This document shows, piece by piece, positions 500 to 57,697 of a DNA stretch of 57,697 bases. Source of the stretch: Pseudomonadota bacterium (GTDB lineage: Bacteria; Bdellovibrionota; FAC87; UBA2466); contig JAYUGC010000134.1 in assembly GCA_043767805.1 (NCBI GenBank), positions 1 through 57,697 of the forward strand, in the 5' to 3' direction. The notes below the pieces were generated by a model, which saw nothing but the letters and a program-made list of their open reading frames with translations, was not told the DNA's origin and ran no database searches. Every line of letters starts with the position of its first letter. Positions within the stretch are counted from its first letter, which is position 1. Both the position numbers and the translations under genes were made by a program.

Positions 500-1777
500 C
501 TAGTGGAACTGTTCTTCCTCGGTGGAGCCCTTGAACGCTGAGGTGGAAAGATTGCCGCTCGCGATCACCTGCGCCACCTGATCGAAGTAACCAGTTCCCA
601 CGAACTTCTGGTGCGCGGTCGCCCGGTAGCCTTCGGACTCCTTGCTGAACTCTTCCGTCTGGAAGTTCGCATAGGCCAGCATGCCTTTGTCGCGGTAGTC
701 GCGAGCCAAGTTGAACATGCTGTAGTTGAGCGCGTGGAAACCCGCTAGGGTCACGAACTGGAACTTGTAGCCCATGGCCGCGAGCTCTTTCCTGAACTTC
801 GCGATGGTCGCGTCGTCGAGCTTCTTCTTCCAGTTGAAAGACGGCGAGCAATTGTACGCGAGCATCTGATCGGGATGCTGCTTTCTCACCGCTTCGGCAA
901 AGCGCTTGGCTTCCTGAAGATTGGGCTCGGAAGTCTCGCACCAGATCAGATCCGAATAAGGCGCGTAGGCGACTCCGCGGGCGATAGCGGCATCGAGGCC
1001 GCCCTTGATGGTGTAGAAGCCTTCCACCGTTCTGTCGCCGGTGAGAAAGGGCTTGTCGCGATCGTCGATGTCGGTCGTGAGGAGCTGAGCGCCGTTCGCG
1101 TCCGTGCGGGCGATGACGAGAGTCGGCACGCCCATGACGTCGGCGGCGAGACGGGCCGCAACGAGCTTTTGTATGGCGTCTCCGGTACCGACCAGGACTT
1201 TACCGCCCATGTGACCGCATTTTTTCGCGGAAGAGAGCTGATCCTCGAAGTGCACCCCGCCAGCGCCCGCTTCGATCATGTTCTTCATGAGCTCATAGGC
1301 GTTGAGGTTGCCTCCGAAGCCGGCTTCGGCGTCGGCGACGATGGGAGCGAAGTAGTTCGGTCCCTTGCGGCCTTCGGCGGTCGCGATCTCATCGGCGCGG
1401 CGAAAAGCATTGTTGATCCGGCGGACCAGGGCCGGAACGCTATCGACGGGATAGAGACTCAAGTCGGGATACACCTGACCGGACTCGTTGGCGTCGGCGG
1501 CGACTTGCCATCCGCTGCAGTAAATCGCGGGAAGCCCGGCTTCCACCTGTTGCACGGCCTGGTTGCCGGTCATGGCGCCGAGAGAGAACACGCATTCGTC
1601 GGTGTGGAGCTGCTTCCAGAGGCGCTCGGCTCCCAGCCGGGCGAGCGTGTACTCGATGTGAATGGAGCCGCGGAGCTTGACGACGTCTTCGGCTTGATAA
1701 GGACGCTCGATGCCCTTCCAGCGTACGTCCTTCTTCCAGCTCTCTTGCAATTCCGAAGCGGTCTTCAGCGTCCCCAT
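500..1777 (-). CDS. aceA: Isocitrate lyase
   Basis: KKCGHMGGK catalytic signature, DAEAGFGG and [10 protein letters not shown]. Start set at MGTLK (1777), behind a GGGGAG SD. Confidence 0.97.
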
Positions 1778-1797
1778 TTTATCTCCCCCTGTTAGGC

Positions 1798-3357
<1,560 letters not shown>

Positions 3358-5105: not shown

Positions 5106-6467
5106 TTAGCGGATGCCGAGCTCTTTCATTTTTAGCTGGAGCCCCTTGCGGCTGATGTTCAGCTTTTTGGCGGCGCGAGTGACGTTGTTCTCCGTCTCGA
5201 CGAGCGCCTCCTCGATGGCCTTCTTCTCGATGCGGCGAGTGGCCTCCTTGACCTGCTCTTTGAGCGAAGCGCCGGGTCCGAGCGCGCGCTCCTCTTCGTA
5301 CTCGAGAATGTCTTCGGGAAGCTGATCCGCGATGAGCTCCTGGCCATCGCTCATCACGATGAGCCGCTCGATGACGTTCTCGAGCTGACGGATATTGCCG
5401 GGCCAAGTGAATTGCGTGAGCAGCTCCAGGGATTCCGCGCTCACTCTGGGGACGGATTTTTTCATTCGCTCGGAGAACTTGCCGACGAAGTAAGCGACAA
5501 GCTGAGGGATGTCATCCCGCCGATCGCGCAGCGGGGGAAGCGCGATGGGAACGACGTTCAGGCGATAAAAAAGATCTTCGCGGAAGTTGCCTTCTTTGAC
5601 TTCCTTTTCGATATCCCGGTTGGTCGCGGCAACGAGGCGCACGTTCACTTTCAAGGTACGAAGTCCGCCGACGCGCTCGAAAGTGCCATCTTGAAGCACC
5701 CGCAAGAGCTTCACTTGCATCTCGGTGCTCATCTCGCCAATCTCATCCAAAAAGAGGGAGCCGCCGTCGGCAAGCTCGAAGCGGCCGGGCTTTGCGGTAC
5801 CCGCGCCCGTGAACGCGCCCTTCTCGTACCCAAAGAGCTCGCTCTCCATGAGTGTTTCCGGAATGGCCGCGCAGTTAATCTTGATGAAGGGCTCCTTCGC
5901 CCGAGGACTCGCTTCATGAATCGCCTGCGCGATGAGCTCCTTACCCGTTCCGCTCTCGCCGGTGATGAGCACCGTCGAATCGGTGGGCGCGACCTTTTCG
6001 ACTAGGCCGTAGATGCGCTTCATCTTGCTGTTTGATCCCACCATGGCCGAGCCCGCGAAATTCGCGCCCGCGGTGCGCACGAATTGGCTCGCTTGGTACT
6101 TATAGGTCAAAAGCGCTTTGCGAATCCCGCGCGTGAGCTCCGAGCGCTCGAAAGGTTTGGCGACGTAGTCATAGGCGCCCTGCTTCATGGCGTCGACCGC
6201 GCTATCGACCGTACCGTGCGCCGTCAGAATGATCACCGGAATGGTGGGGTACTCTTCCCGTACCCATTTGAGCATCTGCAAGCCGTCTTCCCGCTCGAGA
6301 CGCAAGTCCGTGAGAATGACGTGAATCTCTTTCAAGCGGACCAGCTCTTTGGCTTCCGCGATGGTGGCCGCCGTCTCTACCTCGTGGCCCTCGGCGAGAA
6401 GCATGGCGGACAGAATCTTTCTGAGCGGTGGCTCGTCGTCCAAAATCAGGATGCGGGAAGTGCTCAT
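5106..6467 (-). CDS. Sigma54-dependent response regulator (NtrC family: REC-AAA+-Fis HTH)
   Basis: REC domain (ILILDDE...TDLRL), GESGTGKE, ESELFGYEKGAFTGA, WPGNIRQLEN and a C-terminal HTH. Confidence 0.95.
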   Translation of the reverse strand: MSTSRILILDDEPPLRKILSAMLLAEGHEVETAATIAEAKELVRLKEIHVILTDLRLEREDGLQMLKWVREEYPTIPVIILTAHGTVDSAVDAMKQGAYDYVAKPFERSELTRGIRKALLTYKYQASQFVRTAGANFAGSAMVGSNSKMKRIYGLVEKVAPTDSTVLITGESGTGKELIAQAIHEASPRAKEPFIKINCAAIPETLMESELFGYEKGAFTGAGTAKPGRFELADGGSLFLDEIGEMSTEMQVKLLRVLQDGTFERVGGLRTLKVNVRLVAATNRDIEKEVKEGNFREDLFYRLNVVPIALPPLRDRRDDIPQLVAYFVGKFSERMKKSVPRVSAESLELLTQFTWPGNIRQLENVIERLIVMSDGQELIADQLPEDILEYEEERALGPGASLKEQVKEATRRIEKKAIEEALVETENNVTRAAKKLNISRKGLQLKMKELGIR

Positions 6468-8629
6468 GCCGGTAGCTCTTTCGTACGGAGCTTCTCGGGA
6501 AGCGGATCCCCCTCTTCCCGGAGCGGTAAATGTATCGTAAAGATCGTCCCGCGCGGACGATTCGGCTTAACCGTGATGATACCACCCATCGCTTCCACCA
6601 TGCGCTGGCATATCGCGAGCCCCAGTCCCGTGCCCCGGGGCTTGGTCGTATAGAAGGGCGTGAAAATTTTAGCGCGGCTTTCGGCCGGAATGCCGGGCCC
6701 GTTATCGATGACTTCAATCTCGGCGACGCCTTTGCTGTCGCGCGGGATGGATCGCTGCCAGCCTTCCCATACTTTGTAGAGCGGAAGCTTGCCGGCGAAA
6801 GGAAGCGCGCGCTTGGGCCGAATGGGGCGGACGCGCAATAAGATCCGGGGCGTTTCCGTGTTGCCTTCGAGTGCCTCCACCGCATTCAAGAGCAGATTCA
6901 AGACCACTTGTTTGAGGCCATCCGGATCGGCGTCGACCAAAAAAGTTTCTTTATCGGACTGAATCTCGACCCGGACTTTGGAGTCTTTCAGCAAGAGAGC
7001 GGTCGCGTGCTCGAGGACCCGGACCGGATCGCAACCTTGATGACTCTGCTGCCGGCGGGGTTTGGCGTAATCGAGAAAGTCGGTCAGGACGCCCGAGAGC
7101 CGGTCGGTCTCATCGACGATGATTTTCAAGAACTCGGCGGACGCCGAATCGGTGCCCAGATTTTGGCCGGCGAGTAGCTGAGCCGCGCCTTTGATGGAGC
7201 CCAGCGGATTTTTGATTTCGTGCGCGAGGCCCGCGGCCATCTCTCCCACCGCAGCCAGTTTATTGCGCTCGCTGAGCGTGCCCAGAGTCTGAGAGTTACG
7301 AAGCAGCAAGGCGATTTGGCGAGAGACGGGAATGAAGATGCGAAGCTGCTCGTTGGAAAGCGCCAGCGTCTCCGCCGATTTCACCGCGGAAAATCCGACG
7401 ACCCGGCCCTCGTGAGTGAAGGGTAAAATAAAATCGGCGCCGATTTTGCGCATGCCCTCTATGCACTCCTCGCAAAACTTCCTCGCCTGAACCGAATGGA
7501 AGGAATCGCGGTCGTTCTCCACTGTCTCCACCACGAAAGGACGCCCGCGGCGGAGAATCATGTACTCCACGAGCGGCGCCGTGGAGGATTCCTCGTCATT
7601 GCCGAAGGGCACGCCCTCGGAATCAAAGCGCACGAAGGTGAGGCCGTCTCGCTCCAAGACGAAGAGCGAGCAGGACTGGATGCCAATAGTCTTTCCAAGC
7701 GCCTCACTTACCCGCCGGGAAAGCTCCGCGGGCTCGACTAGACCCCGCAAATTAGCCGACAGCGCCGCGAGCTCGTCCTCCAGCATGCTATTGCTGCGAA
7801 GGAGCAACCGCCGGGTCGCCCAAGCCGTAAACGATCGGATGGGTTCGAAAAGCACGACGATCACCACGGAAGCGATGAGCGTATTGAAAAGGAAGAGGTC
7901 GCGCTTATCTCCGACCCAGCTCACTAGAAACAAATAGATGGTGGAAAGCACCACCGAGACTCCGCTAAAGAGCGCGAGCTTTCCGAGAACTTCCTCGGCG
8001 GTCATCAGCTCCTTCTGCACGAAGGTGTGAAAGATGAAGAACAGGTAAAGCGTCCGCGCCAAGGTCCCCAGCGGAGGCACACTGACTCCCGAAAGGCTCA
8101 GGATGTCGGTCGTAAACACGGCGACCGTGACGATCCCACCGAGATACGCGTACTGAAGGCGAAGCCGCTCGCGGGTCAAAGTCGATTGCACGGCGACGCT
8201 ATGAACGACGATGACCCACACTCCCGCGGGAAAGAGGTAGGCGACGTGGGCCAGAATGAGTAAAAGCGGCGCGTATTTCGGCTCGAAGCCGGGGAGCCAA
8301 AGGACGGCCAGAAGAATCAGAGTCAGCGGAGCATAGGGCCAGAGATATCGCTGAAGGCGGTCGCCCCGAATAGGGACCATTTCCTTTAGGAACCAAAGCG
8401 TCGCCGGCCCGGCCAGCCAGACGGACAAGGTGTGGGTCACCGAGCTCGAGATCCAGGGACTTTGCTGGAACTTTTCGAGGACGGTCACGGCGTCGTGAAC
8501 AAAGAGCACACCCATCCAGCAGGCAAACGCCACGCAAAGGCGACTGCGGATATTGCGAAGCAATGCGGCTATCGCGAGCGATGCGTTAACAAACGCTGCG
8601 ATAACCAGACTTACCGTTTCAACTCCCAT
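6464..8629 (-). CDS. Membrane sensor histidine kinase (multi-TM N-terminus, GAF-like domain, HisKA, HATPase)
   Basis: AAGLAHEIKNPL H-box, NLLLNA N-box, DNGPGI, FTPFYTTKPRGTGLGL; hydrophobic N-terminal ~270 aa. ATGA overlap with the regulator. Confidence 0.93.
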   Translation of the reverse strand: MGVETVSLVIAAFVNASLAIAALLRNIRSRLCVAFACWMGVLFVHDAVTVLEKFQQSPWISSSVTHTLSVWLAGPATLWFLKEMVPIRGDRLQRYLWPYAPLTLILLAVLWLPGFEPKYAPLLLILAHVAYLFPAGVWVIVVHSVAVQSTLTRERLRLQYAYLGGIVTVAVFTTDILSLSGVSVPPLGTLARTLYLFFIFHTFVQKELMTAEEVLGKLALFSGVSVVLSTIYLFLVSWVGDKRDLFLFNTLIASVVIVVLFEPIRSFTAWATRRLLLRSNSMLEDELAALSANLRGLVEPAELSRRVSEALGKTIGIQSCSLFVLERDGLTFVRFDSEGVPFGNDEESSTAPLVEYMILRRGRPFVVETVENDRDSFHSVQARKFCEECIEGMRKIGADFILPFTHEGRVVGFSAVKSAETLALSNEQLRIFIPVSRQIALLLRNSQTLGTLSERNKLAAVGEMAAGLAHEIKNPLGSIKGAAQLLAGQNLGTDSASAEFLKIIVDETDRLSGVLTDFLDYAKPRRQQSHQGCDPVRVLEHATALLLKDSKVRVEIQSDKETFLVDADPDGLKQVVLNLLLNAVEALEGNTETPRILLRVRPIRPKRALPFAGKLPLYKVWEGWQRSIPRDSKGVAEIEVIDNGPGIPAESRAKIFTPFYTTKPRGTGLGLAICQRMVEAMGGIITVKPNRPRGTIFTIHLPLREEGDPLPEKLRTKELPA

Positions 8630-36970: not shown

Positions 36971-37915
36971 TCATCCGGCAAACGAACGGCTCATGGCGTA
37001 AGCGAGAGCCTCCCCAAACCGATCCCGCAAGAGCGCCTTCATTCCCAGGTACAGCACGCGAGGAGCGCGGTGTTTTTCTAAAATCAAACGCTCCGGCGAA
37101 AGAGACCGTTCGAGACATTTAGCGACGAGCCAGCCGCCCAGGCCGGCATGCCCGATCCCTTCGGGAACCGGCGTTCCGAAATGCCGCCTGAGCACGGCCG
37201 CCGAAACGGCGACCGCCCGGCGGAGCCTCAAGCGAATGGCGAGCCGCTCGACCGCGGCGACATCCAGGCCTTCCCGCCGGACGAGATGATCGAGATCCAC
37301 GAGCCAATGGAGCTGATCGAAGAGATGCTGAAGCGCCCCGTGCCCGCAGAGATAGACGAAGTTCAAGTTCGTCTCGAACTCGCGGAACCAGTCAACCTCA
37401 GGGATGCAGGAAGCGCGGCTGTGCCAGCGCGAGATGCCTTCGAAATCCCGGCCGGCGAGCATTTGCCGATGGCCTTCCACCGGGACCCCGTCCAGGACGA
37501 AGACCTGACGAAACTCCGTGCCGAGCCAGCTACCTGGATCGCCCGGCTCCGCGCCCAGCCCTTGAAGGACTCTCCCAAAATCACGCCAGCGGTGTTCCGA
37601 CACCAAAATGTCGATGTCCGTGCAGGGCCGGTGCAAGGGGGAATCGTAAATCCGGTAGGCGAGACTCGGCCCTTTCAAAAGCCAGGCCGGAAGCCCCGCC
37701 GCTTTGAACGCCTCATTCAATTTTTTCAAGACGCCGCGAAAAGTCACCTCGCGCACGGCGCGCGAACTCCAAGCTCGTCGACAAACGGCTTCGAGCTCCG
37801 TTCCTTCGACGCCTCCCTTGGCTAACGCCAAAGGACCGAAGGCGGCCGCCCCTTGCGGCGTGGCCAGCCAGTTCCGGAAGGCGGGAGTCCTCATCCAAGT
37901 TTCAAATGGTGTCAC
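36971..37915 (-). CDS. Nucleotidyltransferase (NTP_transf_5-like, RiPP-associated)
   Basis: LLKGPSLA..IY....RPCTDIDILV motif, VEGH and WLVDL. Confidence 0.85.
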   Translation of the reverse strand: MTPFETWMRTPAFRNWLATPQGAAAFGPLALAKGGVEGTELEAVCRRAWSSRAVREVTFRGVLKKLNEAFKAAGLPAWLLKGPSLAYRIYDSPLHRPCTDIDILVSEHRWRDFGRVLQGLGAEPGDPGSWLGTEFRQVFVLDGVPVEGHRQMLAGRDFEGISRWHSRASCIPEVDWFREFETNLNFVYLCGHGALQHLFDQLHWLVDLDHLVRREGLDVAAVERLAIRLRLRRAVAVSAAVLRRHFGTPVPEGIGHAGLGGWLVAKCLERSLSPERLILEKHRAPRVLYLGMKALLRDRFGEALAYAMSRSFAG

Positions 37916-38348
37916 GCCGGACGTTCCCTCTTCCTAGCTGCAGAGCCATTTCGATTAAAGCGAGCGCCTTCAGGCCGACGCGAGCGGGTCGTCCTTTCGG
38001 GCCCGCGCGCATGCGGCGGGAAAACCAGGCCGACCAACGTTTGAGCCCCGGCCCGCGCTCGCCCCACACCACCCGCCAAGCGCCACGCCGAACTCCCAAA
38101 ACCCGGCCCACGAGCGGCGAAGGGGGATCCCATTCGCAAGCCGCGTCTCCTTTGGTGGCGAGCCCGCCGCCCTTGCCCACCACCCGGTGCGCGGACCAAA
38201 CTCGATTGCCTTCGAGGCGGAACGGGCCGGTAACGACCAGGTCCCCTTCCCCTACGAGCGGCGAGTCGCCGAGCTCGACGAGCAAAGCGTCTCCAGGCTT
38301 CAGGAAAGGCACCATGCTCTCACCATGAAAAGAGACCCAGGTAGGCAT
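37902..38348 (-). CDS. Soluble S24/S26-family peptidase (candidate leader peptidase)
   Basis: GESMVPFL (catalytic Ser), SAHRVV and TKGDA. The ATG overlaps the precursor stop (TAATG); no N-terminal TM anchor. Confidence 0.82.
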   Translation of the reverse strand: MPTWVSFHGESMVPFLKPGDALLVELGDSPLVGEGDLVVTGPFRLEGNRVWSAHRVVGKGGGLATKGDAACEWDPPSPLVGRVLGVRRGAWRVVWGERGPGLKRWSAWFSRRMRAGPKGRPARVGLKALALIEMALQLGRGNVRRDTI

Positions 38349-38527
38349 TAGGAGAGAAGTCGGTTGGAGCGACAGAAGTTGGGAGCCCCGAGCGATTCCT
38401 TGCGTCCCCCAACCAAGGAACCGTTGCAGGTGATGGCGGCGCCGTTGACCATCCACTTCTCCGAAACAATCTTCGGCTTCTCGTAAGGAATTTTCTCGGG
38501 CTTCTTGTCTTTGGGGTCGTCGCTCAT
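38348..38527 (-). CDS. Putative RiPP precursor peptide, 59 aa (absent from the ORF track)
   Basis: Manual translation: MSDDPKDKKPEKIPYEKPKIVSEKWMVNGAAITCNGSLVGGRKESLGAPNFCRSNRLLS*. GAGGAG SD, ATGA overlap with the rSAM stop, TAATG overlap with the peptidase start, and a YxxPxI RRE-binding motif. Confidence 0.88.
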   Translation of the reverse strand: MSDDPKDKKPEKIPYEKPKIVSEKWMVNGAAITCNGSLVGGRKESLGAPNFCRSNRLLS

Positions 38528-39555
38528 GCTGTAGTCTCCTCGAAAACTTGGGCGCGGATTTTCGCCGCTTCCGCCGCGTAAGGAATCACTTTCAAAGGAT
38601 CGCGAAGCTCATTTCTCGCCATGCCGGGACAATGCTCGCAAAGGCCGGCGGCGTTGCCCTTCGGCATGCCCGACAAATCGCCGAGTCTCAGATCTCTCCA
38701 TTTGAGTGCGATCTCATTTCCCCAGAGCTCGGCGAAAGACGATTCCGTGAGAAGCCCGAGCGGCTCCCGCACTTCAATGCAGGGGAGCAGCTCTCCGTAG
38801 GCGGTGACCGCGCACTTCGCCTTTCCGACGCCGCAGGTATGGTGCTCGAGCGTAGTCGCCTCGGGCTCGCGAGCCCGCCCCGCTCGCCTGGCCTGCTCAC
38901 GATAGTAGACGAGAAGCTGTTCCGGAGTCGCTCTCTGGCGAGTCGGCGCCATATCGCCGCTGAACTTCGCGGTGACCACGGGATCGGCTTGCATGGGAAG
39001 CGATCGCTCCGCGCACCAGGCTTCAAGATCGAAGTAGCCGTCGATATTTTCCCGGGTGAGCAAAGTATTGATGGTCACGCCGAGGCCCGCCTCTTTGGCG
39101 AACTCGATGGCCCGCACCAGACGGGCATGGGAGCCCGCGACCGCGGTCATCCGATCGTGCACGGCCGAGTCGGTGCTATAGAGACTGATGGTCAGATAAG
39201 AAAATCCCGTTCGCTTCAAACGAAACGCGGCCGCTCGATCTATTTTCAAAGCGTTGGTGATCATCGACAACGAGAAGCCCAGCCCCGCCGCATACTCGGC
39301 GATGGCCCAAAACTCCGGGTGGAGCATGGCTTCGCCGCCCATCAAGACGACGTAGAGCACTCCCGCGCCGCGAATTTCCCGTAGGACATGCTTCCACTGA
39401 TCCAGAGTAAGCTTTCGCTCGGGATCGTCTTTAAACGAGTCGAGATAACAGTGCGTGCAACGCTCGTTGCAGCGATAAGTAAGCTCCAGGGAAGCCTTCA
39501 TGGGTCTTGCCTTGAGGAGACTGTGATCTCCCCATTTGTCGAGCAAGGCGCTCAT
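38524..39555 (-). CDS. Radical SAM enzyme with SPASM/twitch-type C-terminal domain (PqqE-like)
   Basis: ELTYRCNERCTHCY (CxxxCxxC), MGGEA, CGVGKAKC...GELLPC and CEHCPG. Confidence 0.93.
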   Translation of the reverse strand: MSALLDKWGDHSLLKARPMKASLELTYRCNERCTHCYLDSFKDDPERKLTLDQWKHVLREIRGAGVLYVVLMGGEAMLHPEFWAIAEYAAGLGFSLSMITNALKIDRAAAFRLKRTGFSYLTISLYSTDSAVHDRMTAVAGSHARLVRAIEFAKEAGLGVTINTLLTRENIDGYFDLEAWCAERSLPMQADPVVTAKFSGDMAPTRQRATPEQLLVYYREQARRAGRAREPEATTLEHHTCGVGKAKCAVTAYGELLPCIEVREPLGLLTESSFAELWGNEIALKWRDLRLGDLSGMPKGNAAGLCEHCPGMARNELRDPLKVIPYAAEAAKIRAQVFEETTA

Positions 39556-39824
39556 TCGGCTACTTCCACCAGCCCCAACTCTTTCAATTCCATTTCAAAG
39601 GCGAGCATGTCGGCCGAGGCGGTCGCTTCATCCACGTCAAAGGTTTCACTCAGGCGCCGAATGAGAGTCTCGCGAGGGAGCTGCCCATCGAGCCGCTCCC
39701 AAATCCAGGTTCCCGCGCGGTTGCACTCATGAACGAGATCGCGCCCGGGATTGAGTAAGACAGCGACTCCTTCGAAGGTCTGCCACCCCACGCCGAGCGC
39801 GCGCTTCAAGCCGTATTCAGCCAT
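39552..39824 (-). CDS. PqqD-family RiPP recognition element (RRE)
   Basis: 90 aa; AVLL...HECNRAGTWIWERLDG...LSETFDVD.ATASADM..F...L...GLV. Confidence 0.9.
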   Translation of the reverse strand: MAEYGLKRALGVGWQTFEGVAVLLNPGRDLVHECNRAGTWIWERLDGQLPRETLIRRLSETFDVDEATASADMLAFEMELKELGLVEVAE

Positions 39825-40704
39825 CGATGACCCTCCAAAAATCCGCGTCTCTGCGAAACGAAAGCTCGAAGCCCGGCACTTGGCGCACGAGCTGCACCAA
39901 GCGCTCCATCAAAGCGGAAGCTAACGACGAGTCGGAAAGTAAGAACGTGTGCACGAGCGCCCGGGCGAGTTCGCCCGGGCCGAGCGCGCGCACCTGCACT
40001 TCACTGGATTGCCGGAGCCAATAAAACCCCGCGAGCGGCGCCGGCTTATCGATTCTATCCCTGTCAAAGCGCGCCTGGCCGAGCAGCGCCGGCTCGACGG
40101 TGGCGCCGAGCTCTCCCACCCGGATCAAATTAATGTCGTCTCCCAAAACCACGCGGTTTCCGGCAAACGAAGCGATGGTGGATTTCCCCGCGCCGGAGTG
40201 GCCGAGAAACACGTGCGCCCTTCCGTCATTCCCGATCACGGCCGCCGAATGCGCCACGAGCGCGCCCCGAGAGAGCAACGCGGGAGGCAGAAACCAGCGG
40301 AGCGCATTGAAGAGCCCATCGGAGCTGTCGGCCTTCGCCGCAATCACCGCTTCGCGCGGGCTCAAACGGCGCGCGACGAAATCGCGCTGGAGCACCATAT
40401 CGCCACGCACTTCAAAGCCCGGATCGGGATCTTCGTCGAACTCGACGTCGCCTCCGGTCCAGAGGCGATGAGCGTCCTGCCAATGGAGCGAAAGCGCCGG
40501 CTCGGCCTCGCGAAGCCAAGCCATCGGTAAACGTCCCCGCGCGAACTCGAGCGAGGCCCGGTGGTCGAAGGCAAAACGGAGGGGCACGCCATGATACAGG
40601 CAATAAAAATGCGGCGCGGACCCGAGCGGCGTCAGGTGCTGCGCGAGCTTGCGCTTACCCGGGCGAGAGGACGCTTCGGGAAGTCGAATAATTTCCGGCA
40701 CCAA
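39817..40704 (-). CDS. HprK-related kinase (P-loop; ScmC/PadeK-like)
   Basis: AHSAAV, GHSGAGKSTIA (Walker A) and VLGDD motifs of the HPr-kinase superfamily. Start is TTG 40704 or GTG 40701. Confidence 0.8.
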   Translation of the reverse strand: MVPEIIRLPEASSRPGKRKLAQHLTPLGSAPHFYCLYHGVPLRFAFDHRASLEFARGRLPMAWLREAEPALSLHWQDAHRLWTGGDVEFDEDPDPGFEVRGDMVLQRDFVARRLSPREAVIAAKADSSDGLFNALRWFLPPALLSRGALVAHSAAVIGNDGRAHVFLGHSGAGKSTIASFAGNRVVLGDDINLIRVGELGATVEPALLGQARFDRDRIDKPAPLAGFYWLRQSSEVQVRALGPGELARALVHTFLLSDSSLASALMERLVQLVRQVPGFELSFRRDADFWRVIDG

Positions 40705-49704: not shown

Positions 49705-51156
49705 CTAAACGCCGTCGGCGCCAGAGGTTCCGCCGGACTTGGGCGCCGCATCGGCGCCGGTCTCGTCGGCCTTGGGCGCTTCTTCCGCCCGAGTACGCTC
49801 TTTCTGAGCTTTCATTTCCGCTTTCAAACGTTCGAATACCGCATCCGAAGTCATCTTCGAGGACGCGGCGGTCGCCACGGCTTCCGCCTGGGCAATTTCT
49901 TTTTTCAGTGCCTGGTACTTGCCGGAAGCCATGAACGCCTTCGCGTTGGCGATGATTTCCGTGGCCTTGTCGACCGTGAAGCCGGGAACCGCGGCCAAGG
50001 CCGTGGCATCCGCTTGCGCGATCTGATCGACACTCAAGCCGTAGTGGAACGAGCTCTGCGCGAGCGTGTCGTTCATGCCTTCGATGGCCAGCAGCAATTT
50101 CTTTCTCTCGTCGAACCGCTTAGCCATCGTATTTTCGGACACGATGTCAAGCTTCCAGCCGGTGAGCTGGCTAGCGAGCTTCACGTTCTGGCCGCGCTTA
50201 CCGATGGCAAGCGACAGCTGATTGTCGGCAACGACGATCTCCATGGACTTGGCCTGCTCGTCGACGAGCACTTTGACCACTTCCGCGGGAGCGAGAGCGT
50301 TACAAACGAAACGGGTCTCTTCGGCGTCGAAGGGAACGATGTCGATCTTCTCACCGCGAAGTTCCTGCACCACGTTCTGGACGCGGGCGCCTTTGACGCC
50401 TACGCAAGCGCCGACCGGATCCACGTCGGAGTCGGAAGACTCGACGGCGATCTTCGCGCGCACACCCGGCTCACGAGCCGCGTGCTTGATGGTGACGATG
50501 CCTTCGGCCACTTCCGGCACTTCCTGGTGGAAGAGCTGGATGAGGAGCTCGGGGCAGGTGCGGGAAAGGACGATGCGCGGACCGCGAGGAGTCTGCTGCA
50601 CGTCGATGAGGAATCCGAGGACGCGGTCGCCCGGGCGATAATGCTCGCCGGGGATCTGTTCGCGCGCGGGCAAAATGGCATCCGTGCGGCCGAGATCCAC
50701 GATCACGCAGCCGCGCTCGACGCGACGGCAGGTGCCGCTGACCACTTCGCCTTTGCGAAGATTGAACTCGTTGTAAATGATGTCGCGCTCGGCGTCCCGG
50801 ACCTTTTGGATGATGACCTGTTTGGCGGTCTGGGCGGCAATGCGGCCGAACTCGGAGGAGTCGAGCTTGATACCAATGGAGTCGCCGACGCTTGCTTCCG
50901 GGTCGAGTTTTTTCGCTTCAGTGTGAAGCACTTCGATGTCCGGGTTCGCGAGGGTCTCGACCACGGTCTTGAACTGGAAAAGCTCGATCTCACCGAGATC
51001 GGGATTGAAGTGCGCTTCGATTTCTTTTTCGATGCCGAACTTCTTTTTCGCGGCGGTGAGCATGGCCGTTTCCAGCGCTTCGATCAGGATGGCCCGATCG
51101 ATGCCCTTATCTTTTTCGACTTGCTCAAGTACGCGACCTAATTCTGAACCTGCCAT
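49705..51156 (-). CDS. nusA: Transcription termination/antitermination factor NusA
   Basis: FGRIAAQTAKQVI, AREPG.RAKIAV, DPVGACVG and AIGKRGQNVKLA. Confidence 0.97.
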   Translation of the reverse strand: MAGSELGRVLEQVEKDKGIDRAILIEALETAMLTAAKKKFGIEKEIEAHFNPDLGEIELFQFKTVVETLANPDIEVLHTEAKKLDPEASVGDSIGIKLDSSEFGRIAAQTAKQVIIQKVRDAERDIIYNEFNLRKGEVVSGTCRRVERGCVIVDLGRTDAILPAREQIPGEHYRPGDRVLGFLIDVQQTPRGPRIVLSRTCPELLIQLFHQEVPEVAEGIVTIKHAAREPGVRAKIAVESSDSDVDPVGACVGVKGARVQNVVQELRGEKIDIVPFDAEETRFVCNALAPAEVVKVLVDEQAKSMEIVVADNQLSLAIGKRGQNVKLASQLTGWKLDIVSENTMAKRFDERKKLLLAIEGMNDTLAQSSFHYGLSVDQIAQADATALAAVPGFTVDKATEIIANAKAFMASGKYQALKKEIAQAEAVATAASSKMTSDAVFERLKAEMKAQKERTRAEEAPKADETGADAAPKSGGTSGADGV

Positions 51157-51171
51157 GGAACTACTCTCTTT

Positions 51172-51702
51172 CTAATTCTTCTCGGGAGGCACGCCGTCGG
51201 CGCGCCAAACCCGCACTGCCTGGAGCACTTGCCCCAAAGGAACGGAAACTTCGTCCCGATCCACAATTACAAAAATCTCGTCTTTATCCACCCGCGCGAG
51301 CCTGCCCGTCAAATTGGCGCCGCGACCCGGCAATCTTTCCGCGAGTTTCAACTTCAACTCTTGGCCGACCACCTTTTCGAAATCGCCCTTCAGCCGCAGC
51401 CGGCGGTCGATTCCAGGGGAGGACACTTCCAAATCGTAGGCGCCGGGCACTTTCTCATCGAGAACGGGACCAAGAGCCCGGCTAACCGTCGCGCAATCCT
51501 CAATGGACACACCAGTGGGGGCCTCGGCCGACGTTGCCTCCGCCTTTTCCGCCTTCATTCTTTCGATGAAGAGCCGAATCAGCGACCGGCCAGAAGCCCG
51601 GTAGTCGAGATCGATCGGTCGAAATCCCAGCGGCGAAAGCGTCTGATCGCAGAGCTCTAAAATTTCCGCCTCCACTTGGGATTTACGAATAGATTCGACC
51701 AA
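51172..51702 (-). CDS. rimP: Ribosome maturation factor RimP
   Basis: GVSIEDCATVSR and YDLEVSSPGIDRRL; first gene of the nusA-infB operon. Confidence 0.94.
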   Translation of the reverse strand: MVESIRKSQVEAEILELCDQTLSPLGFRPIDLDYRASGRSLIRLFIERMKAEKAEATSAEAPTGVSIEDCATVSRALGPVLDEKVPGAYDLEVSSPGIDRRLRLKGDFEKVVGQELKLKLAERLPGRGANLTGRLARVDKDEIFVIVDRDEVSVPLGQVLQAVRVWRADGVPPEKN

Positions 51703-51724
51703 TTAATGACCCTCAAAGGTTCAC

Positions 51725-51752
51725 AAAAGAAAAAAAGCGGGCACTGCCCGCC
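51725..51752 (-). terminator. rimP-leader hairpin / attenuator
   Basis: GCGGGCAGTGCCCGC hairpin followed by TTTTTTTCTTTT, between a TTGTAT-N17-TAGAAG promoter (51781-51809) and rimP. Confidence 0.65.
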
Positions 51753-51845
51753 TGAGCTTTTATGAGCGCAAGACGGTGTACTTCTAGCAGCTTCCCCTAA
51801 CAAATACAAGATTCTAGGGGCTAGCGCGAAGCCAAGATTCGAGGG

Positions 51846-54488
51846 TTATTCCTGATAGCCTTGACGCAGAAAATCGCTCGTCTCGGACTCTTTGGCGGTG
51901 TCGACTTCGGACTCGCCGGGCGTAGTGGCCTCCCCGGGCGTACCCGTGGCGGTCTCGACGTTGGAAAGCTTGGTGCGGCTTCCCGGCTCGCCGATGCGGT
52001 TCAAGTTGCTGCCGTCGCGCGAAGGCACGCTTCCGACTTTGTAAGCGGCCCGCACGCGGCCCTTTTGGCCGGCGTTGGCGAGCCGGCCCGTTTCGGGATC
52101 GATGAACGCGAAAGAGATGCCTTCCGGCACGTTGAACCCGCCACGCGGGTACTTCGGAACGACCTTCGCCATGTAGTCGACCCAGATGGGCGTCGCCGTA
52201 TGACCACCGGTCTCGGCGGCGGCAAGAGGCTTGTCCTTTTCATAACCGACCCAGACGCCGGTCATGATGGTCGGCGTAAAGCCGACGAACCAAGCATCGC
52301 GGTGATCGTTGGACGTTCCGGTCTTACCAGCAACCGCGCCACCGACCGCGGCGGCCCTGCGGCCGGTGCCCGTGGGATCGTTGACCACGCCTTGAAGCAT
52401 GTCGACCATGACGTAAGCCGTGGTGGGCGAAATCACGCGGCCCGGCGGTAAGCCCTCGGGCGTTTCGGCGGTGGCCAGGACGGCGGCTTCTTCTTTCTCG
52501 GGCTTGTACTCTTCGAGCACTTTGCCTTCAGCGTCGGTGACTTTCTTCAAATAGTAAAGCGCGACAGGTTTTCCGAGACGCGGGAAGACGGAGTAGGCGC
52601 GCGTGATCTCGTCGAGACTGCTCGACCAGGAACCGAGCGCGATCGACAGATCGTGATTGAGCGGCGCGGTGATACCCATCTTGCGGGCGAACTCGATGCC
52701 GTGATCGATGGTGATCTGATTGAGGAGCTTCACGCTCGGAATGTTCATGGAACGGGTCAGCGCGAGGCGGAGCGGGATGTCGCCCTTGAACTTGCCGGCG
52801 TAATTATGCGGGCGCCAATCTTCGCCGACGTTGTCGGAATCGAGATCGCCTTCGACTTTGAAGACGATGGGCGCGTCCGAGACCTGTGAGGATTGATTGA
52901 AGCCTTCTTCCATCGCGGCGGCGTAGAGGACCGGCTTGAACGTGGAGCCCACCTGGCGCTTGGCCTGAAGCGCGCAGTTGAACTTGCTCTCTTCGAAATT
53001 CTTGCCGCCGACCATGGCGCGGACCGCGCCGGTCTTCAACTCGAACGAAAGGAGCGCGCCTTGGATCTCGGGGTACTGCTCGAGCGAGGCGAAAATGGTA
53101 CCGGCCTTGCGATCGATTTTATCGATCTTTACTTCGATGACGTCACCGGCCTTGAGCACTTTGGAAACTTTGTCGACGGGCTTTTCGTCCTTAATCACCC
53201 ACACCATGGTGGAGAGCGGAAGCACGACGTTCGTCTGGCCGACTCGGGCGGACACTTCGTTCTTCGTGTCGTCGACCGCGGTGACGACGGCCTTGTAGTA
53301 CTCGTTCTCGAGAGTGGGCGTCGGGCCGAAATACTTGGAGTCCGCGGTTTGGAACGCGGAGAGATCCCAGCCGAGCTGGCTCTTCTCGCCTTCGGGAAAG
53401 CTCGCCGGCAAAATGCGGAGCGGCGTTACCTTACGGAGCACGTCCTCGTGAATCTTCTTTTCGTACGCTTCGATGTCGACGGGAGAATCGAGATGAGCCA
53501 AAGCGCCGCGCCAGCCGAGACGCTTGTCCGCCTCGCGCAAGCCGCGCATGGTGGCGATGTCAGCCGCCTTCTGGAACTCGTAGTTGAGCGTCGTGTAAAT
53601 CTTGTAGCCCGAGTTGAGAATCGTATCGGAGCCATACTTATTCATCAGATAAAGACGAATGTGCTCGACGAAAAACGGCGCGAGCCTATTGTTGATGTCT
53701 TCCACTTCGTACAGCTTCAAGGGCTCGGCGAAGCTTTCCAGTGATTGCGCCTGAGTGATATAGCCGTCGGTCGCCATGCGGTTCAGAACGTACTGCTGGC
53801 GGCGCTTGGCGAGATTCGGGTTATGGAACGGATCCCAGTCGTTCGGGCGCTGCGGGAGGCCGGCGAGTATGGCCCCTTCCGCGATCGTCAGCTGAGTCAC
53901 GTCCTTGTTGAAGTAGTTGCGCGCGGCGGCGCCGATACCAAAAGCGCCGTGACCGAGATAAATCTCCGACAAATAGAGCGAGAGGATCTCGTTCTTTGAG
54001 AGCTCCTTCTCCATGCGCCAGGCGAGAACGATCTCGCGCACTTTGCGGGTGATGTTCTTTTCGCGCGAGTTGAGCACGATGGAACGGGCCACCTGCTGGG
54101 TGATGGTACTGCCGCCCTGGGCGTACTTGCCGCGCATGACGTTGGAAAGCACGGCGCGCAAAATGCCCGCGGGATCGACGCCTCTATGTTCGTAAAAGTG
54201 AGAGTCTTCCGCCGCGATGAAAGCGGAGACCACGTGCCTGGGCATCTTATCGAACTCGGTGGGGTAGCGGCGCTGCTTGGTGAACTCCCCGATCTTGACC
54301 CCGTCCTCGCTGAACACTTCGGTGGCGTTCGCGTGCTTGAAGTCTTTCAAGCTCGAGACGTCGGGCAGCTCTTTCAGAATGCGGACGACGAAAATCGTGC
54401 CGCCGATTCCGCCTAGCAGGATGAGTCCGAGCGCAATGAGGGAAAAGGTTTTCACCGTTCCTTTCAAAATGCGCTTGTCGAAAGCCAT
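51846..54488 (-). CDS. mrcA: Class A penicillin-binding protein 1A
   Basis: N-terminal TM, EDSHFYEHRG and GGSTITQQ transglycosylase motifs, an OB-like insert, and STFK, SMN, KTGT transpeptidase motifs. Confidence 0.93.
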   Translation of the reverse strand: MAFDKRILKGTVKTFSLIALGLILLGGIGGTIFVVRILKELPDVSSLKDFKHANATEVFSEDGVKIGEFTKQRRYPTEFDKMPRHVVSAFIAAEDSHFYEHRGVDPAGILRAVLSNVMRGKYAQGGSTITQQVARSIVLNSREKNITRKVREIVLAWRMEKELSKNEILSLYLSEIYLGHGAFGIGAAARNYFNKDVTQLTIAEGAILAGLPQRPNDWDPFHNPNLAKRRQQYVLNRMATDGYITQAQSLESFAEPLKLYEVEDINNRLAPFFVEHIRLYLMNKYGSDTILNSGYKIYTTLNYEFQKAADIATMRGLREADKRLGWRGALAHLDSPVDIEAYEKKIHEDVLRKVTPLRILPASFPEGEKSQLGWDLSAFQTADSKYFGPTPTLENEYYKAVVTAVDDTKNEVSARVGQTNVVLPLSTMVWVIKDEKPVDKVSKVLKAGDVIEVKIDKIDRKAGTIFASLEQYPEIQGALLSFELKTGAVRAMVGGKNFEESKFNCALQAKRQVGSTFKPVLYAAAMEEGFNQSSQVSDAPIVFKVEGDLDSDNVGEDWRPHNYAGKFKGDIPLRLALTRSMNIPSVKLLNQITIDHGIEFARKMGITAPLNHDLSIALGSWSSSLDEITRAYSVFPRLGKPVALYYLKKVTDAEGKVLEEYKPEKEEAAVLATAETPEGLPPGRVISPTTAYVMVDMLQGVVNDPTGTGRRAAAVGGAVAGKTGTSNDHRDAWFVGFTPTIMTGVWVGYEKDKPLAAAETGGHTATPIWVDYMAKVVPKYPRGGFNVPEGISFAFIDPETGRLANAGQKGRVRAAYKVGSVPSRDGSNLNRIGEPGSRTKLSNVETATGTPGEATTPGESEVDTAKESETSDFLRQGYQE

Positions 54489-54630
54489 GGAAGTCCTCTG
54501 TGGTCTTTGGGTAAGGGAGAATAGGTTTGGACGGGCATTATAAGGATATCAGAGTTTAACCGCCACCCAAATTGACGCGAAGGCTCCCAAGGCCTTGACC
54601 GGAAAACCCCTTCGTTTATGATTTAGAGTC

Positions 54631-54819
54631 ATGAGCAAATACAAACTCTCGGCTGAAGATCTCGCCCCCACCGCGATGACGGTGAAGCTGGAAAAACACA
54701 TCGTCGAGGACTTAAAGACCATGGCCAAGAACACTTCCATGCCTGTGGACGAACTCGCCCGCAAGGCTCTCCTCATGTTCATCGCCACGCACAACGACTA
54801 CCTCGGTCGTCGGTCCTAA
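54631..54819 (+). CDS. Small ribbon-helix-helix-like protein
   Basis: MTVKLEKHIVEDLKTMAK...PVDELARKALLMFI RHH pattern. TTGACC-N16-TATGAT promoter lies 8 nt upstream. Confidence 0.7.
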   Translation: MSKYKLSAEDLAPTAMTVKLEKHIVEDLKTMAKNTSMPVDELARKALLMFIATHNDYLGRRS

Positions 54820-55133
54820 GATCAGATCTTATTTAAATTCATATACTTAGCGTTTAAGGCAAAAGCCTAGGGCCCTCGTCCGCGGTATCGATTGGACCGT
54901 ATTCTCGCCACTCGGAGGAACGGCGGCCCTCGAAAAGCTGAGCGGTTCCGTGCGGCTCCCTAAACTGGAACCCTGCAGACCGCGAGAGCGCGACCAGAAA
55001 CCAGTCGCGAGCTATCTTTTATCCACTTTCCGTAACTCGCCGTAAATATGCGGTCTCTCGTGTGCTCGTGGAAATTCGTCTTAACCGGTGACACGCTCGT
55101 TTGGTGTACGGGCGAAAACCCATGCTTGTTTTC

Positions 55134-55149
55134 TGGCACCGCCGTTGCA
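55134..55149 (+). promoter_or_regulatory. Sigma54 (-24/-12) promoter
   Basis: TGGCACCGCCGTTGCA is an exact match to TGGCAC-N5-TTGCW. Confidence 0.75.
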
Positions 55150-55160
55150 CTAGTACCATC

Positions 55161-55540
55161 CCGTGACTGGGCGAATCACAGATAAGAACAATCCTCGAGT
55201 AGAAGTTTTAAAGTAGTACGTGTGCGACGCGTGGATTTTTCACTGTGGTACGTGGATTCTTTTGTAAGGTTTGCCTCGTCCCCTACCCCCCAATGCTCCC
55301 GAGAGGGAGCTGGACAGCTTTTCGTTCAGCGGGGTGGAAACTTCGGTTTCCGCCTCGCTGGGCGACTGTCTAAACGCAGTCCGTAAAAAAGCGGACGTTG
55401 GTGGGCTAGGTTTGCGTTTAGTACAGGATGGTAGCTTCAAAACTGTGTGCCTGTTCCGTCCCGGGCGTATCAAGCAGTTACGGTCTGTGCCGACCGCAAC
55501 TGACGCCGAGAGAACAGAAAACAAACAGCTACCGTTCAAG
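55161..55540 (+). ncRNA. Candidate sigma54-dependent structured ncRNA (~380 nt)
   Basis: GCTCCC-GAGA-GGGAGC GNRA hairpin, a 20-bp stem with a cUUCGg loop and four G-U pairs, and nested stems to ~55537. No credible CDS in the interval. Confidence 0.6.
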
Positions 55541-55543
55541 CGA

Positions 55544-56389
55544 CTACATGCCACCGCCGAGCCCGAACTTTTCAGGGATAGCCTGGAGAATTGCCTTCTC
55601 CACTTCCGTGGCTGTCTCTTCCAGCGCTTTTCCCGTCACGTCGAAGACCGGCCAACGCCGGTTCTTTCTAAACAATCCCTTGCAGTACTCGATTTCCTGA
55701 ATGACGTGATCGAGGTTCGCGTAATTGCCACCCGGATCCTCGCCCATCTTGATGAGGCGCTCCCGGCGAATGCGCACCAGATCTTCGGGATCGATGATGA
55801 GCCCCACGATCTTTCTCTGATCGGTTTGAAAGAGCGGCTCGGGAAGCGGGATGCCGTGCACCACGGGCACGTTGGCTACTTTCCAACCCTTGTAGGACAA
55901 GTACACGCTAAGCGGCGTTTTGCTCGTACGTGAAAGCCCCACGAGGATGATGTCGGCCTCTTGAAGGTTATCCGTGTACCGCCCGTCATCGTGCTTCACG
56001 GTGAACTCGATCGCTTCGATTCGCTTGAAGTAGTACGCGTTCACCTGATGGAAGAGACCAGGCTGGGAGTCCGGATCTTTTTTCAGGAACTGCGAGAGCC
56101 GGTCCATGAGGGGCCCGAGAAGGTCCACGCTGGTCACGCCCGAGTCCTGAGACAGCTTCTGAATGTAGGTGCGCAAACGGTCCGACACCACCGTGTAGAT
56201 GATGAGTGAAGTCTGAGTGTGCGCCTCTTCGAACACGCTCGCCACCTGGCTGTCGGTGCGGATGTTCTTGTAACGAACGATCTTGAGATTATCCCGGTGG
56301 TACTGAACGAGAGCCGCCTTGATCATCTGATCGGCGGTCTCGCCGGTTCCATCGGAGAGCACGAAAATCGTCACGCCTCCGTCGGTCAT
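55544..56389 (-). CDS. ppsR: PEP synthase / PPDK regulatory kinase-pyrophosphorylase (DUF299)
   Basis: SDGTGETA, YFKRIEAIEFTVKHDDG, GLSRTSKTPLS and DVTGKALEETA. Confidence 0.92.
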   Translation of the reverse strand: MTDGGVTIFVLSDGTGETADQMIKAALVQYHRDNLKIVRYKNIRTDSQVASVFEEAHTQTSLIIYTVVSDRLRTYIQKLSQDSGVTSVDLLGPLMDRLSQFLKKDPDSQPGLFHQVNAYYFKRIEAIEFTVKHDDGRYTDNLQEADIILVGLSRTSKTPLSVYLSYKGWKVANVPVVHGIPLPEPLFQTDQRKIVGLIIDPEDLVRIRRERLIKMGEDPGGNYANLDHVIQEIEYCKGLFRKNRRWPVFDVTGKALEETATEVEKAILQAIPEKFGLGGGM

Positions 56390-57339
56390 TTGGACCCCTC
56401 CCAGCGGTATTTAAGTGGCTGGCCGCCCGCAAAGCGAGCGGCTTCCTCAATGCAAACTCTGGCCATGGCCTCGCGTGCGATTTTCGTCGCCGAGCCCACA
56501 TGGGGCAAGCAGAAGGCATTAGGCAAAGACGCGAGTCCCGCCGCAATCCGCGGCTCAGCCTCGTACACATCGAGGCCCGCGAAAAACTCAGGGTTCGATC
56601 TGAGATGCGCGGTCAATGCCGCTTCATCGACGATCGACCCGCGAGCGGTGTTGACGAGCACCGCATTCGGTTTCATCAAGGCAAGCTGCTTCAAGCCAAT
56701 GAGATGCTTGGTCTCGGCTTTCAGCGGACAATGCAAAGAGACGACGTCCGCGCTTCTCAAACCCTGTTCGAGCGAGATCCGATCCGCTTGAAGACCGGGC
56801 CAGGTCTTTTCCGGTCCCGCATACAGAATGCGCATGCCACAGGCGGCCGCCCGCCGGGCGACGGCGGAGCCGATTTTGCCGAGCCCCACCACGAGGAGCG
56901 TCGAGCCGGCTAGCTCGAGCCCCAGATAAGAAGACGGATCGAAACCGGCCCAGCGGTTTTCCTCGATGAGGCGCAGGGCGGGCTTCACTTTGCGCGCGCA
57001 GTTGAGCAGGAGCGCTAAAGTGAGGTCCGCGGTGGCGTTGGTCAAAACATCCGGCGTGTGGGCGAGCGGCAATTTGCGCCGGCGGACGGCCTCCAGATCG
57101 ATGTGATCGAGTCCCACCGAATAGGTGATGAGACAAACGAGATTTTCCGCATGGGAGAGGAGCGCTTCGTCCACCCGGTCGGCGACGGTCACGATGAGCA
57201 CGTCCGTGCCGGTGGCCAGGCTTTTTAACTCTTCGGCGGTGGCGGGGCGGTTCTGATCGAAAACCCGGACCGGCTCATAGAAGCCTAATAATTTTTTCTC
57301 GGCTCCGCCGGGAAGCCGCCGCGCTACCGCGCAGTTCAC
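56386..57339 (-). CDS. D-2-hydroxyacid dehydrogenase (glyoxylate/hydroxypyruvate reductase-like)
   Basis: SVGLDHID, HTPDVLTNATAD, GLGKIG, VNTARG, GLDVYEAEP and PHVGSAT. Confidence 0.92.
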   Translation of the reverse strand: MNCAVARRLPGGAEKKLLGFYEPVRVFDQNRPATAEELKSLATGTDVLIVTVADRVDEALLSHAENLVCLITYSVGLDHIDLEAVRRRKLPLAHTPDVLTNATADLTLALLLNCARKVKPALRLIEENRWAGFDPSSYLGLELAGSTLLVVGLGKIGSAVARRAAACGMRILYAGPEKTWPGLQADRISLEQGLRSADVVSLHCPLKAETKHLIGLKQLALMKPNAVLVNTARGSIVDEAALTAHLRSNPEFFAGLDVYEAEPRIAAGLASLPNAFCLPHVGSATKIAREAMARVCIEEAARFAGGQPLKYRWEGSK

Positions 57340-57697
57340 TGAGGCACCACATGGGGGTCGAGCTTCAGCCAGCTGGCCGTCGACTTCATGATGCGGATCT
57401 TGAAGCGCGCGCCCTCTTCCACGTAATCGGTCTCGATCACTTTCGAGAACTCATGGATCTTGGCCTGCAGCATGGTATTGTCGTAGGGCACCACGACTTC
57501 CATCTCGATCATGTCGCGCTCGAAATAGTCGTAGAGCGCCTGGCGGAGGCGTTTCATGTCCTCAGGCCGGAGCGCGGAGACCACTACGCTATTGACGTAG
57601 CTACGCTCCAAAATCTTCGGCAGGAAAACTTCCTTAACCAAATCGGCTTTATTGAAGACCAGCATGCTCGGTCTATCGCCGGCGCCGATTTCCTCGA
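57336..57697 (-). CDS. hflX: C-terminal part of the GTPase HflX (5'-truncated by the window)
   Basis: LVFNKAD (G4), VVSAL (G5) and a C-terminal domain typical of HflX. Confidence 0.7.
   Translation of the reverse strand, partial: EEIGAGDRPSMLVFNKADLVKEVFLPKILERSYVNSVVVSALRPEDMKRLRQALYDYFERDMIEMEVVVPYDNTMLQAKIHEFSKVIETDYVEEGARFKIRIMKSTASWLKLDPHVVPQ

Follow-up and report, generated by a model that had tools for sequence, protein, structure and literature searches.

What is transcribed from a sigma-54 promoter that appears to have no gene behind it? The question arises near one end of the window (the whole 57,697-nt stretch of DNA analyzed here), in the interval between a well-formed −24/−12 element and the stop codon of a convergent ppsR gene. 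The first-pass annotation of this DNA placed there a ~380-nt, four-domain, structured and apparently non-coding RNA, and called it an undescribed enhancer-controlled regulatory RNA. The features of the locus are collected in Table 1.

Table 1 Features of the putative sRNA locus and its immediate surroundings, in window coordinates (strand given as "." where none is assigned).
Feature	Position	Strand	Basis or remark
Small ribbon-helix-helix (RHH)-like gene	54631..54819	+	Pfam RHH_3, E 0.002, below the curated cut-off
Upstream non-coding region, candidate activator sites	54820..55133	.	No ORF of at least 60 aa
GTGTGC half-site	55060-55065		Upstream of the sRNA promoter
GTGTAC half-site	55104-55109		Upstream of the sRNA promoter
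Sigma-54 −24/−12 promoter, TGGCAC-CGCCG-TTGCA	55134-55149	+	TGGCAC-N5-TTGCA
Variable 5′ domain	55161..55269	+	Start near 55160 inferred from promoter geometry
C-box, near-invariant C-rich seed	55270..55294	+	Holds the invariant and near-invariant columns of alignment A1
Hairpin P1, 6 bp, GAGA loop	55295..55310	+	Compensatory changes in 6/6 pairs
Hairpin P2, 7-bp base, internal loop and 20-bp stem, UUCG loop	55311..55372	+	Covariation
Genus-specific extra domain, closed by TAAACGC/GCGTTTA	55371..55421	+	Closing helix kept in same-genus genome G001
Species-specific long interrupted stem, GGTAGCT/AGCTACC	55430..55533	.	Present in folds of both strands
ppsR (kinase/pyrophosphorylase), convergent neighbour	55544..56389	−	Pfam PF03618, E 6.9e-94

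The promoter was confirmed in the sequence. The strict pattern TGGCAYN5TTGCW occurs once in the 57.7-kb window, compared with 0.02 matches expected from shuffles, and 52 times in the source genome as a whole, where our own estimate of the chance number is ~9. The source genome also contains rpoN (PF04552, 219.6 bits, within a 503-aa open frame), and one other copy of the identical 16-nt promoter was found on contig C147 ahead of an unrelated ORF. Among the 27 related sRNA loci, a GG-N10-GC promoter lies 81–212 nt 5′ of the conserved C-rich segment, or C-box, in every case, and 19 of these loci fit the strict TGGCAY-N5-TTGCW form.

The non-coding sequence ahead of the promoter had been suggested as a possible seat of enhancer and IHF sites. 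The IHF part of this proposal found no support, as no match to the consensus was detected in 54820-55133 with up to one mismatch allowed. Enhancer sites are weakly indicated. GTG[CT][GA]C half-sites stand at −62 to −65 and/or −30 to −32 from the −24 element in 12 of 27 sRNA loci; in the source window only the −30 half-site lies at the conserved spacing, and the alignment with G001 begins only at ~55070, within this upstream region. No second promoter with both upstream half-sites was found in the source genome. Nor does an activator gene adjoin the sRNA, the only one in the window being 49 kb distant. At 5106-8629, the gene for an NtrC-type sigma-54 activator (a response regulator) adjoins one for a GAF-domain histidine kinase, and isocitrate lyase and malate synthase genes are found at 500-3357. 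Elsewhere in the window (36971-40704), genes for a radical SAM protein, a PqqD-like protein and an uncharacterised nucleotidyltransferase are neighbors and may form a peptide-modification cluster.

When 41 related genomes were searched at the DNA level, a core of ~50 nt (window ~55260-55320) was detected in 19 of them, and only G001, from the same genus, could be aligned further (55070-55382, 74% identity). Related loci share an architecture consisting of a sigma-54-type promoter, a variable stretch, the C-box, hairpin P1 with a GAGA-like loop, and the long hairpin P2. An exact-pattern scan of one genome per species returned 33 places, 17 of which have the P1/P2 architecture. All 17 are in metagenome-assembled genomes labeled Pseudobdellovibrionaceae, Bdellovibrionaceae, Bdellovibrionales, Bdellovibrionota or unresolved (delta)proteobacteria. 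The remaining 16 fall in unrelated phyla, lack that architecture and were discarded as chance matches. In this analysis the family of organisms carrying the RNA is known only from metagenome assemblies.

We aligned 21 sequences with MAFFT (alignment A1), predicted pairs with RNAalifold, and built a covariance model (R1) from this alignment. P1 and P2 together received 18 predicted pairs, each supported by compensatory changes, and 11 columns of the C-box are invariant. R1 finds a single copy in the source genome and one copy per genome in 28 of the 34 genomes of family f1, spread over 12 of its 12 genera. In a 151-genome sample of the phylum, it was detected in 16 of 20 genomes from f1 and two of three from the sister family f2, with only five marginal matches in other families. 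Those five, together with a second match in one f1 genome, were rejected: none of the six weak places has the C-box, P1 and P2, and one has a sigma-54-like promoter. In a second, model-fitted alignment that leans towards R1 (A2, 29 rows including two antisense rows), 95.7% of cells are paired, compared with 37–53% when partners are slid by 1–3 columns; 18 of 18 pairs are changed on both sides, and none of 500 shuffles attains the observed values. MAFFT and RNAalifold, used independently, gave a result that agrees with these pair counts. The covariation analysis suggested earlier for homologous regions finds compensatory changes at every modeled pair.

Searching positions 50000-57697 against Rfam 15 with E values up to 1 gave no match to the sRNA, in keeping with the earlier remark that hallmarks of tmRNA, RNase P and SRP RNA are lacking. 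By the same scan it is not 6S RNA, nor a member of the Qrr, Pxr, GlmY or CrcZ families, and a snoRNA-like match inside ppsR was dismissed as chance. The description as an undescribed enhancer-controlled regulatory RNA holds in so far as the RNA is structured, has a sigma-54 promoter and matches nothing in Rfam; its enhancer component is the weak part.

The conserved RNA is predicted to be ~210 nt long, from about 55161 to 55372; a look-up of sequencing runs for this sequence listed no RNA data set. Its 5′ domain differs in sequence and length among relatives and is unconserved; in the source genome its fold is a long, irregular hairpin in which the 5′ half of the C-box is also paired. Positions 55280-55294 of the box, which include the C-rich tract proper (55280-55291), are unpaired in the 216-nt fold (55161-55376, z −5.5), and the C-rich part is likewise unpaired in most folds of relatives. 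Beyond it lie P1, with 98.2% of alignment cells paired, and P2, with compensatory changes in 12 of 12 modeled pairs and 94.5% of cells paired. The UUCG-capped stem of P2 (55322-55365) contains four G-U/U-G pairs. Such pairs, frequent in P2, and the covariation fit transcription of the sRNA from the + strand, as had been proposed from the four G-U pairs. In a 386-nt fold, the + strand reaches −161.2 kcal/mol (z −5.7) vs −140.1 kcal/mol (z −4.3) for the − strand.

Every structure named in the first-pass annotation, namely the C tract, the GAGA hairpin, the UUCG stem, the TAAACGCA/TGCGTTTA pair (at 55371-55420) and the GGTAGCT/AGCTACC stem, is present in the sequence. The proposed unit of ~380 nt and four domains was too long, since conservation across the family is confined to 55134-55372. 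The rest of that unit, ~165 nt at its 3′ end (55371-55540), is specific to the genus or the species and falls outside the conserved RNA because the ppsR stop comes soon after P2 in most relatives (10–70 nt beyond it). The interior of the extra domain has diverged in G001, and the domain is absent from other genera. The long interrupted stem, which begins 11 nt beyond the ppsR stop codon, has no aligned counterpart in G001 or the remaining relatives, and could be part of the ppsR 3′ end, of the sRNA 3′ end, or of both. In the 386-nt fold, pairing with the C-box is possible for a G-rich stretch within the genus-specific extension (55397-55412). If the transcript reaches this far, that stretch could mask the C-box seed internally.

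P2 is likely the 3′ hairpin or terminator of the conserved RNA. A U-run stands behind P2 in G005, G015 and G157, and behind an extra hairpin in G025, indicating that P2 probably terminates the RNA in those relatives. A terminator scan of the source window found no U-run or terminator after P2, and candidate 3′ ends in the source genome are 55372, 55421 or beyond. There is also a terminator-like hairpin with a T-run at 55217-55233, inside the variable 5′ domain, which is at chance level (shuffles average 1.6 such sites).

Genes for PBP1A, the small RHH-like protein, ppsR and a 2-hydroxyacid dehydrogenase are the frequent neighbors of the sRNA. The loci we retrieved reach only about 1.5 kb each way, and within that distance ppsR was found in 18 of 27 (one match weak), convergent and close in 16; the RHH-like gene, which in the window has a sigma-70-like promoter at 54595-54622, was found in 11 of 27 and PBP1A also in 11 of 27. 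Gene order and orientation vary by genus, and in one genus (g7) ppsR, the sRNA, the RHH gene and PBP1A follow one another on one strand. This variation points to a separate gene and not to a leader attached to one fixed downstream gene. No + strand coding sequence follows the promoter, and the ORFs over the region are short or shadows of ppsR. One-base indels in the C-box among relatives imply that no reading frame is conserved, in agreement with the non-coding nature first assigned to the region.

What might such an RNA act on? The C-rich tract had been listed among the features of the locus, and both its status as the conserved core and the existence of matching G-rich sites elsewhere were missed. 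In a scan of the whole source genome for sites that could pair with the C-box, the strongest non-self duplex (−38.2 kcal/mol) was found on the minus strand of contig C62 at 7322-7340, starting directly beyond the stop codon of a small gene. Apart from the opposite strand of the sRNA gene itself, this is the only place within one edit of the 18-nt complement. A second site, an exact 13-nt complement, lies 18 nt further on (C62:7292-7304), and a strong hairpin stands behind the two. In G001, three G-rich sites are found at the homologous place after the stop codon of the small gene, and eight T come after the hairpin there.

With up to two mismatches allowed, the 18-mer gave nine non-self matches across 34 genomes, vs three for a reversed control. 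Four of the nine are at homologues of the same small gene (G001, G002, G008 and G020), and two are in the 5′ UTR of a vWA-domain gene in genus g11. Exact 13-mer matches must be read differently: five non-self places were found vs six for the reversed control, which is no excess, and the argument for the target therefore rests on where the matches fall. Further source-genome candidates, in start regions on C9 and C77 and at a site on C157 that lies behind a sigma-54-like promoter, were not retained, having energy and position in their favor and no comparative support.

The small gene encodes a protein of ~150–200 aa with a signal peptide and four conserved cysteines, for which we found no Pfam or NCBIfam family and no useful protein atlas match. 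Homologues were identified in 20 of the 34 genomes, and all 20 have a TGG[CT]N-N6-TTGC[AT] promoter directly upstream. A NitT/TauT-type ABC permease gene lies downstream on the same strand in 12 of these 20 loci. The 20 loci also have upstream motifs in common, including a GACAGCTGTC palindrome, and these differ from the motifs upstream of the sRNA. In three genomes (G161, G162 and G142) the target gene is present and the R1 search detects no sRNA.

We scored the 20 target loci with the C-box of each genome, using a consensus box for five genomes. Duplexes of −38 kcal/mol or stronger occur in 10 of the 20, the best value for a reversed box being −35.0, and the real C-box outscores the reversed one in 16. 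Complementarity between box and target extends over 13–21 bp, most of the strong duplexes having 10–21 contiguous pairs. The site is found in the Shine–Dalgarno region or 5′ UTR (G161, G023, G012), at the start codon and codons 2–8 (G020, G024), in early codons (G014, G017), at the junction of signal peptide and mature protein (G002, G008), beyond the stop codon (G000, the source genome, and G001), or inside a second small ORF (G005, G015). Because sites occur in the 5′ UTR, in early codons, past the stop and in a second ORF, protein-coding constraint does not explain them. A matched change was found in G017, where the C-box has A for the C of the others and the site has U for the G of the others. 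The other 10 target loci, including all five of genus g11, have only a run of 5–8 G at the ribosome-binding site, and in these the real and reversed boxes score alike.

Several observations accompany these sites. In g11 (L119 G157:C78 and L120 G011:C88), the gene for a vWA-domain protein has in its 5′ UTR, about 5 nt past a sigma-54-like promoter, an 18-nt stretch that complements the C-box with a single A bulged out; we regard this gene as a second candidate target. In genus g5 (L131 G015:C372 and L133 G005:C6), the second small ORF is a conserved one of ~70 aa with a CDCDxCK motif; it lies downstream of the small gene and carries the G-rich site within its coding region. An exact 13-nt complement with 17 contiguous pairs occurs in G006 (L098, C75), 47 nt upstream of the start of a gene for a helix-turn-helix, excisionase-like protein. 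Two of the three G-rich sites in G001 (L127, C123) are each followed by an AT-rich palindrome of AACGTTAA/TTAACGTT units, and one related palindrome stands behind the second site of the source genome (L126, C62); the G-rich sites may have multiplied along with this palindromic repeat unit. Between the G-rich sites and the ABC permease gene of the source genome is an inverted repeat, perfect over ~36 bp and with a loop of ~70 nt (L080:3893-4037, C62 about 6892-7036), which may be a small mobile or regulatory palindrome. Rfam matches in this intergenic region are miRNA hairpin models falling on the 36-bp inverted repeat and were rejected as chance.

A search for the Hfq gene (PF17209) was negative in all 34 family genomes, of which 26 have a completeness of 90% or more, and it did detect Hfq in control genomes. 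ProQ was not found in the source genome; CsrA was. The length of the predicted duplexes suggests a fit with chaperone-independent pairing. The best reading of the locus, which we hold with somewhat better than even confidence, is that it is a gene for an Hfq-independent, enhancer-controlled base-pairing sRNA acting on the secreted-protein/transporter operon, an operon that the sRNA probably controls. Sigma-54 RNA polymerase, with an enhancer-binding activator, would start the sRNA near 55160. The exposed part of the C-box (55280-55294) would pair over 13–21 bp with G-rich sites in the mRNA of the sigma-54-driven operon. In most genera the site covers the Shine–Dalgarno sequence, the start or the first codons, where pairing would block translation. 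In the source genus, two or three tandem sites lie past the small gene's stop and before the terminator hairpin, and these may serve in control of mRNA stability or as a decoy. The duplex would perhaps be cleaved by a double-strand-specific RNase.

A more elaborate version of this scheme is rather doubtful, and we offer it tentatively. The sRNA and the mRNA would form a two-input sigma-54 circuit with a separate activator for each, and the site would have migrated from the ribosome-binding site through the early codons and the second small ORF to the 3′ UTR. The endpoint would be that of the source genus, where the terminated 3′ UTR, with its two or three near-perfect sites, would provide an array that titrates the sRNA as a decoy. 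If true, such an array would make the mRNA a sponge for a sigma-54 sRNA, in a lineage whose genomes gave no Hfq match.

The invariance of the C-box allows other explanations than pairing with an mRNA. The sigma-54-driven RNA could bind or sequester a protein through the C-box and P1, its complementarity to the operon being incidental. Pairing with a few targets would not demand a box as conserved as this one, with 11 columns of A1 invariant; half of the target loci are without long complementarity; and CsrA is encoded in the genome. We nonetheless consider this improbable, since there is one C-box and one GGA-like motif and no repeated protein-binding motif, homologues of a single gene hold the genome-wide best complement in five genomes from four genera, which chance does not explain, and the change in G017 is matched on both sides. 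A binding protein could also act on the DNA, the C-box and the G-rich sites being copies of its site rather than RNA partners, as might be thought from the recurrence of the same 13–18-nt word downstream of sigma-54 promoters. We give this very little credence. Read on the sense strand, every sRNA locus inspected has the word in its C-rich form and each of the 10 strong target sites has it in its G-rich form; its placement varies between the 5′ UTR and a point past the stop codon, and partial sites cover different halves of it. Sense-strand bias and mobile, partial sites fit RNA pairing better than an operator.

Other explanations look to the neighboring genes. Antisense or convergent interference with ppsR, by read-through past P2, could be the main role of the transcript. 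This would suit the source genome, where read-through of 55371-55540 would give an RNA of ~380 nt or longer and the 55430-55533 stem abuts the ppsR stop codon; it also gains from the frequency of convergent, close ppsR genes (16 of the 27 loci) and from the lack of a U-tract behind P2 in the source window and in many relatives. Against this, ppsR lies upstream on the same strand in G021 and G027 and was not seen in nine of the 27 loci (over a reach of only ~1.5 kb each way), several genera do have a U-run behind P2, and the invariant C-box and its complements elsewhere would be left unexplained. We judge interference with ppsR to be quite improbable as the main role. A cis-acting leader or a small-protein gene, in place of a trans-acting RNA, is harder still to sustain and in our view highly improbable. 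It has on its side the g7 arrangement, in which the RNA precedes the RHH gene and PBP1A on one strand, and the 42–54-aa ORFs that overlap the region in the source window; the downstream gene differs among genera, however, and is convergent in most, and neither the one-base indels of the C-box nor the compensatory changes of the stems are suited to coding.

With base pairing of a trans-acting sRNA as the preferred reading, the locus yields an RNA family for which there are a covariance model, a defined seed and a specific operon as the proposed target, and each of these is open to testing in a heterologous host, with no need for a culture of the organism. It would be an example of long-duplex pairing in a lineage where the Hfq gene was not found. 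The proposed target, a sigma-54-controlled secreted four-cysteine protein beside a NitT/TauT-type transporter, is itself uncharacterised. The portion of the literature reached by full-text search held no description of this sRNA, or of any sigma-54-dependent sRNA in Bdellovibrio-like bacteria. The predicted RNA is a previously uncatalogued sRNA family with the design of a sigma-54-dependent base-pairing sRNA and a putative target supported by genome comparison.

Base-pairing sRNAs that depend on sigma-54 and an activator include Qrr1-5 of Vibrio (LuxO), NrsZ of Pseudomonas (NtrC) and Pxr of Myxococcus. The present locus resembles these in plan: a −24/−12 promoter, a short non-coding RNA, a conserved unpaired seed and 3′ hairpins, amounting to a signal-controlled post-transcriptional regulator that is predicted here from sequence alone. 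It differs from them in having no sequence or structure match to any Rfam 15 family, in belonging to uncultured Bdellovibrionota, and in its greater length, with a variable 5′ domain of 80–210 nt. Qrr needs Hfq, whereas no Hfq gene was found in the family that carries this sRNA. In its seed, the RNA resembles sRNAs that use C-rich motifs on G-rich ribosome-binding regions, such as RsaE/RoxS of Firmicutes, sX13 of Xanthomonas and CcsR of Rhodobacter, some at least of which act without Hfq. As in those, an exposed run of C is predicted to pair with G-rich sites at or near translation starts. Their C motifs are short, several in number and placed in hairpin loops, whereas the RNA described here has one long linear box, predicted duplexes of 13–21 bp, and a sigma-54-type promoter.
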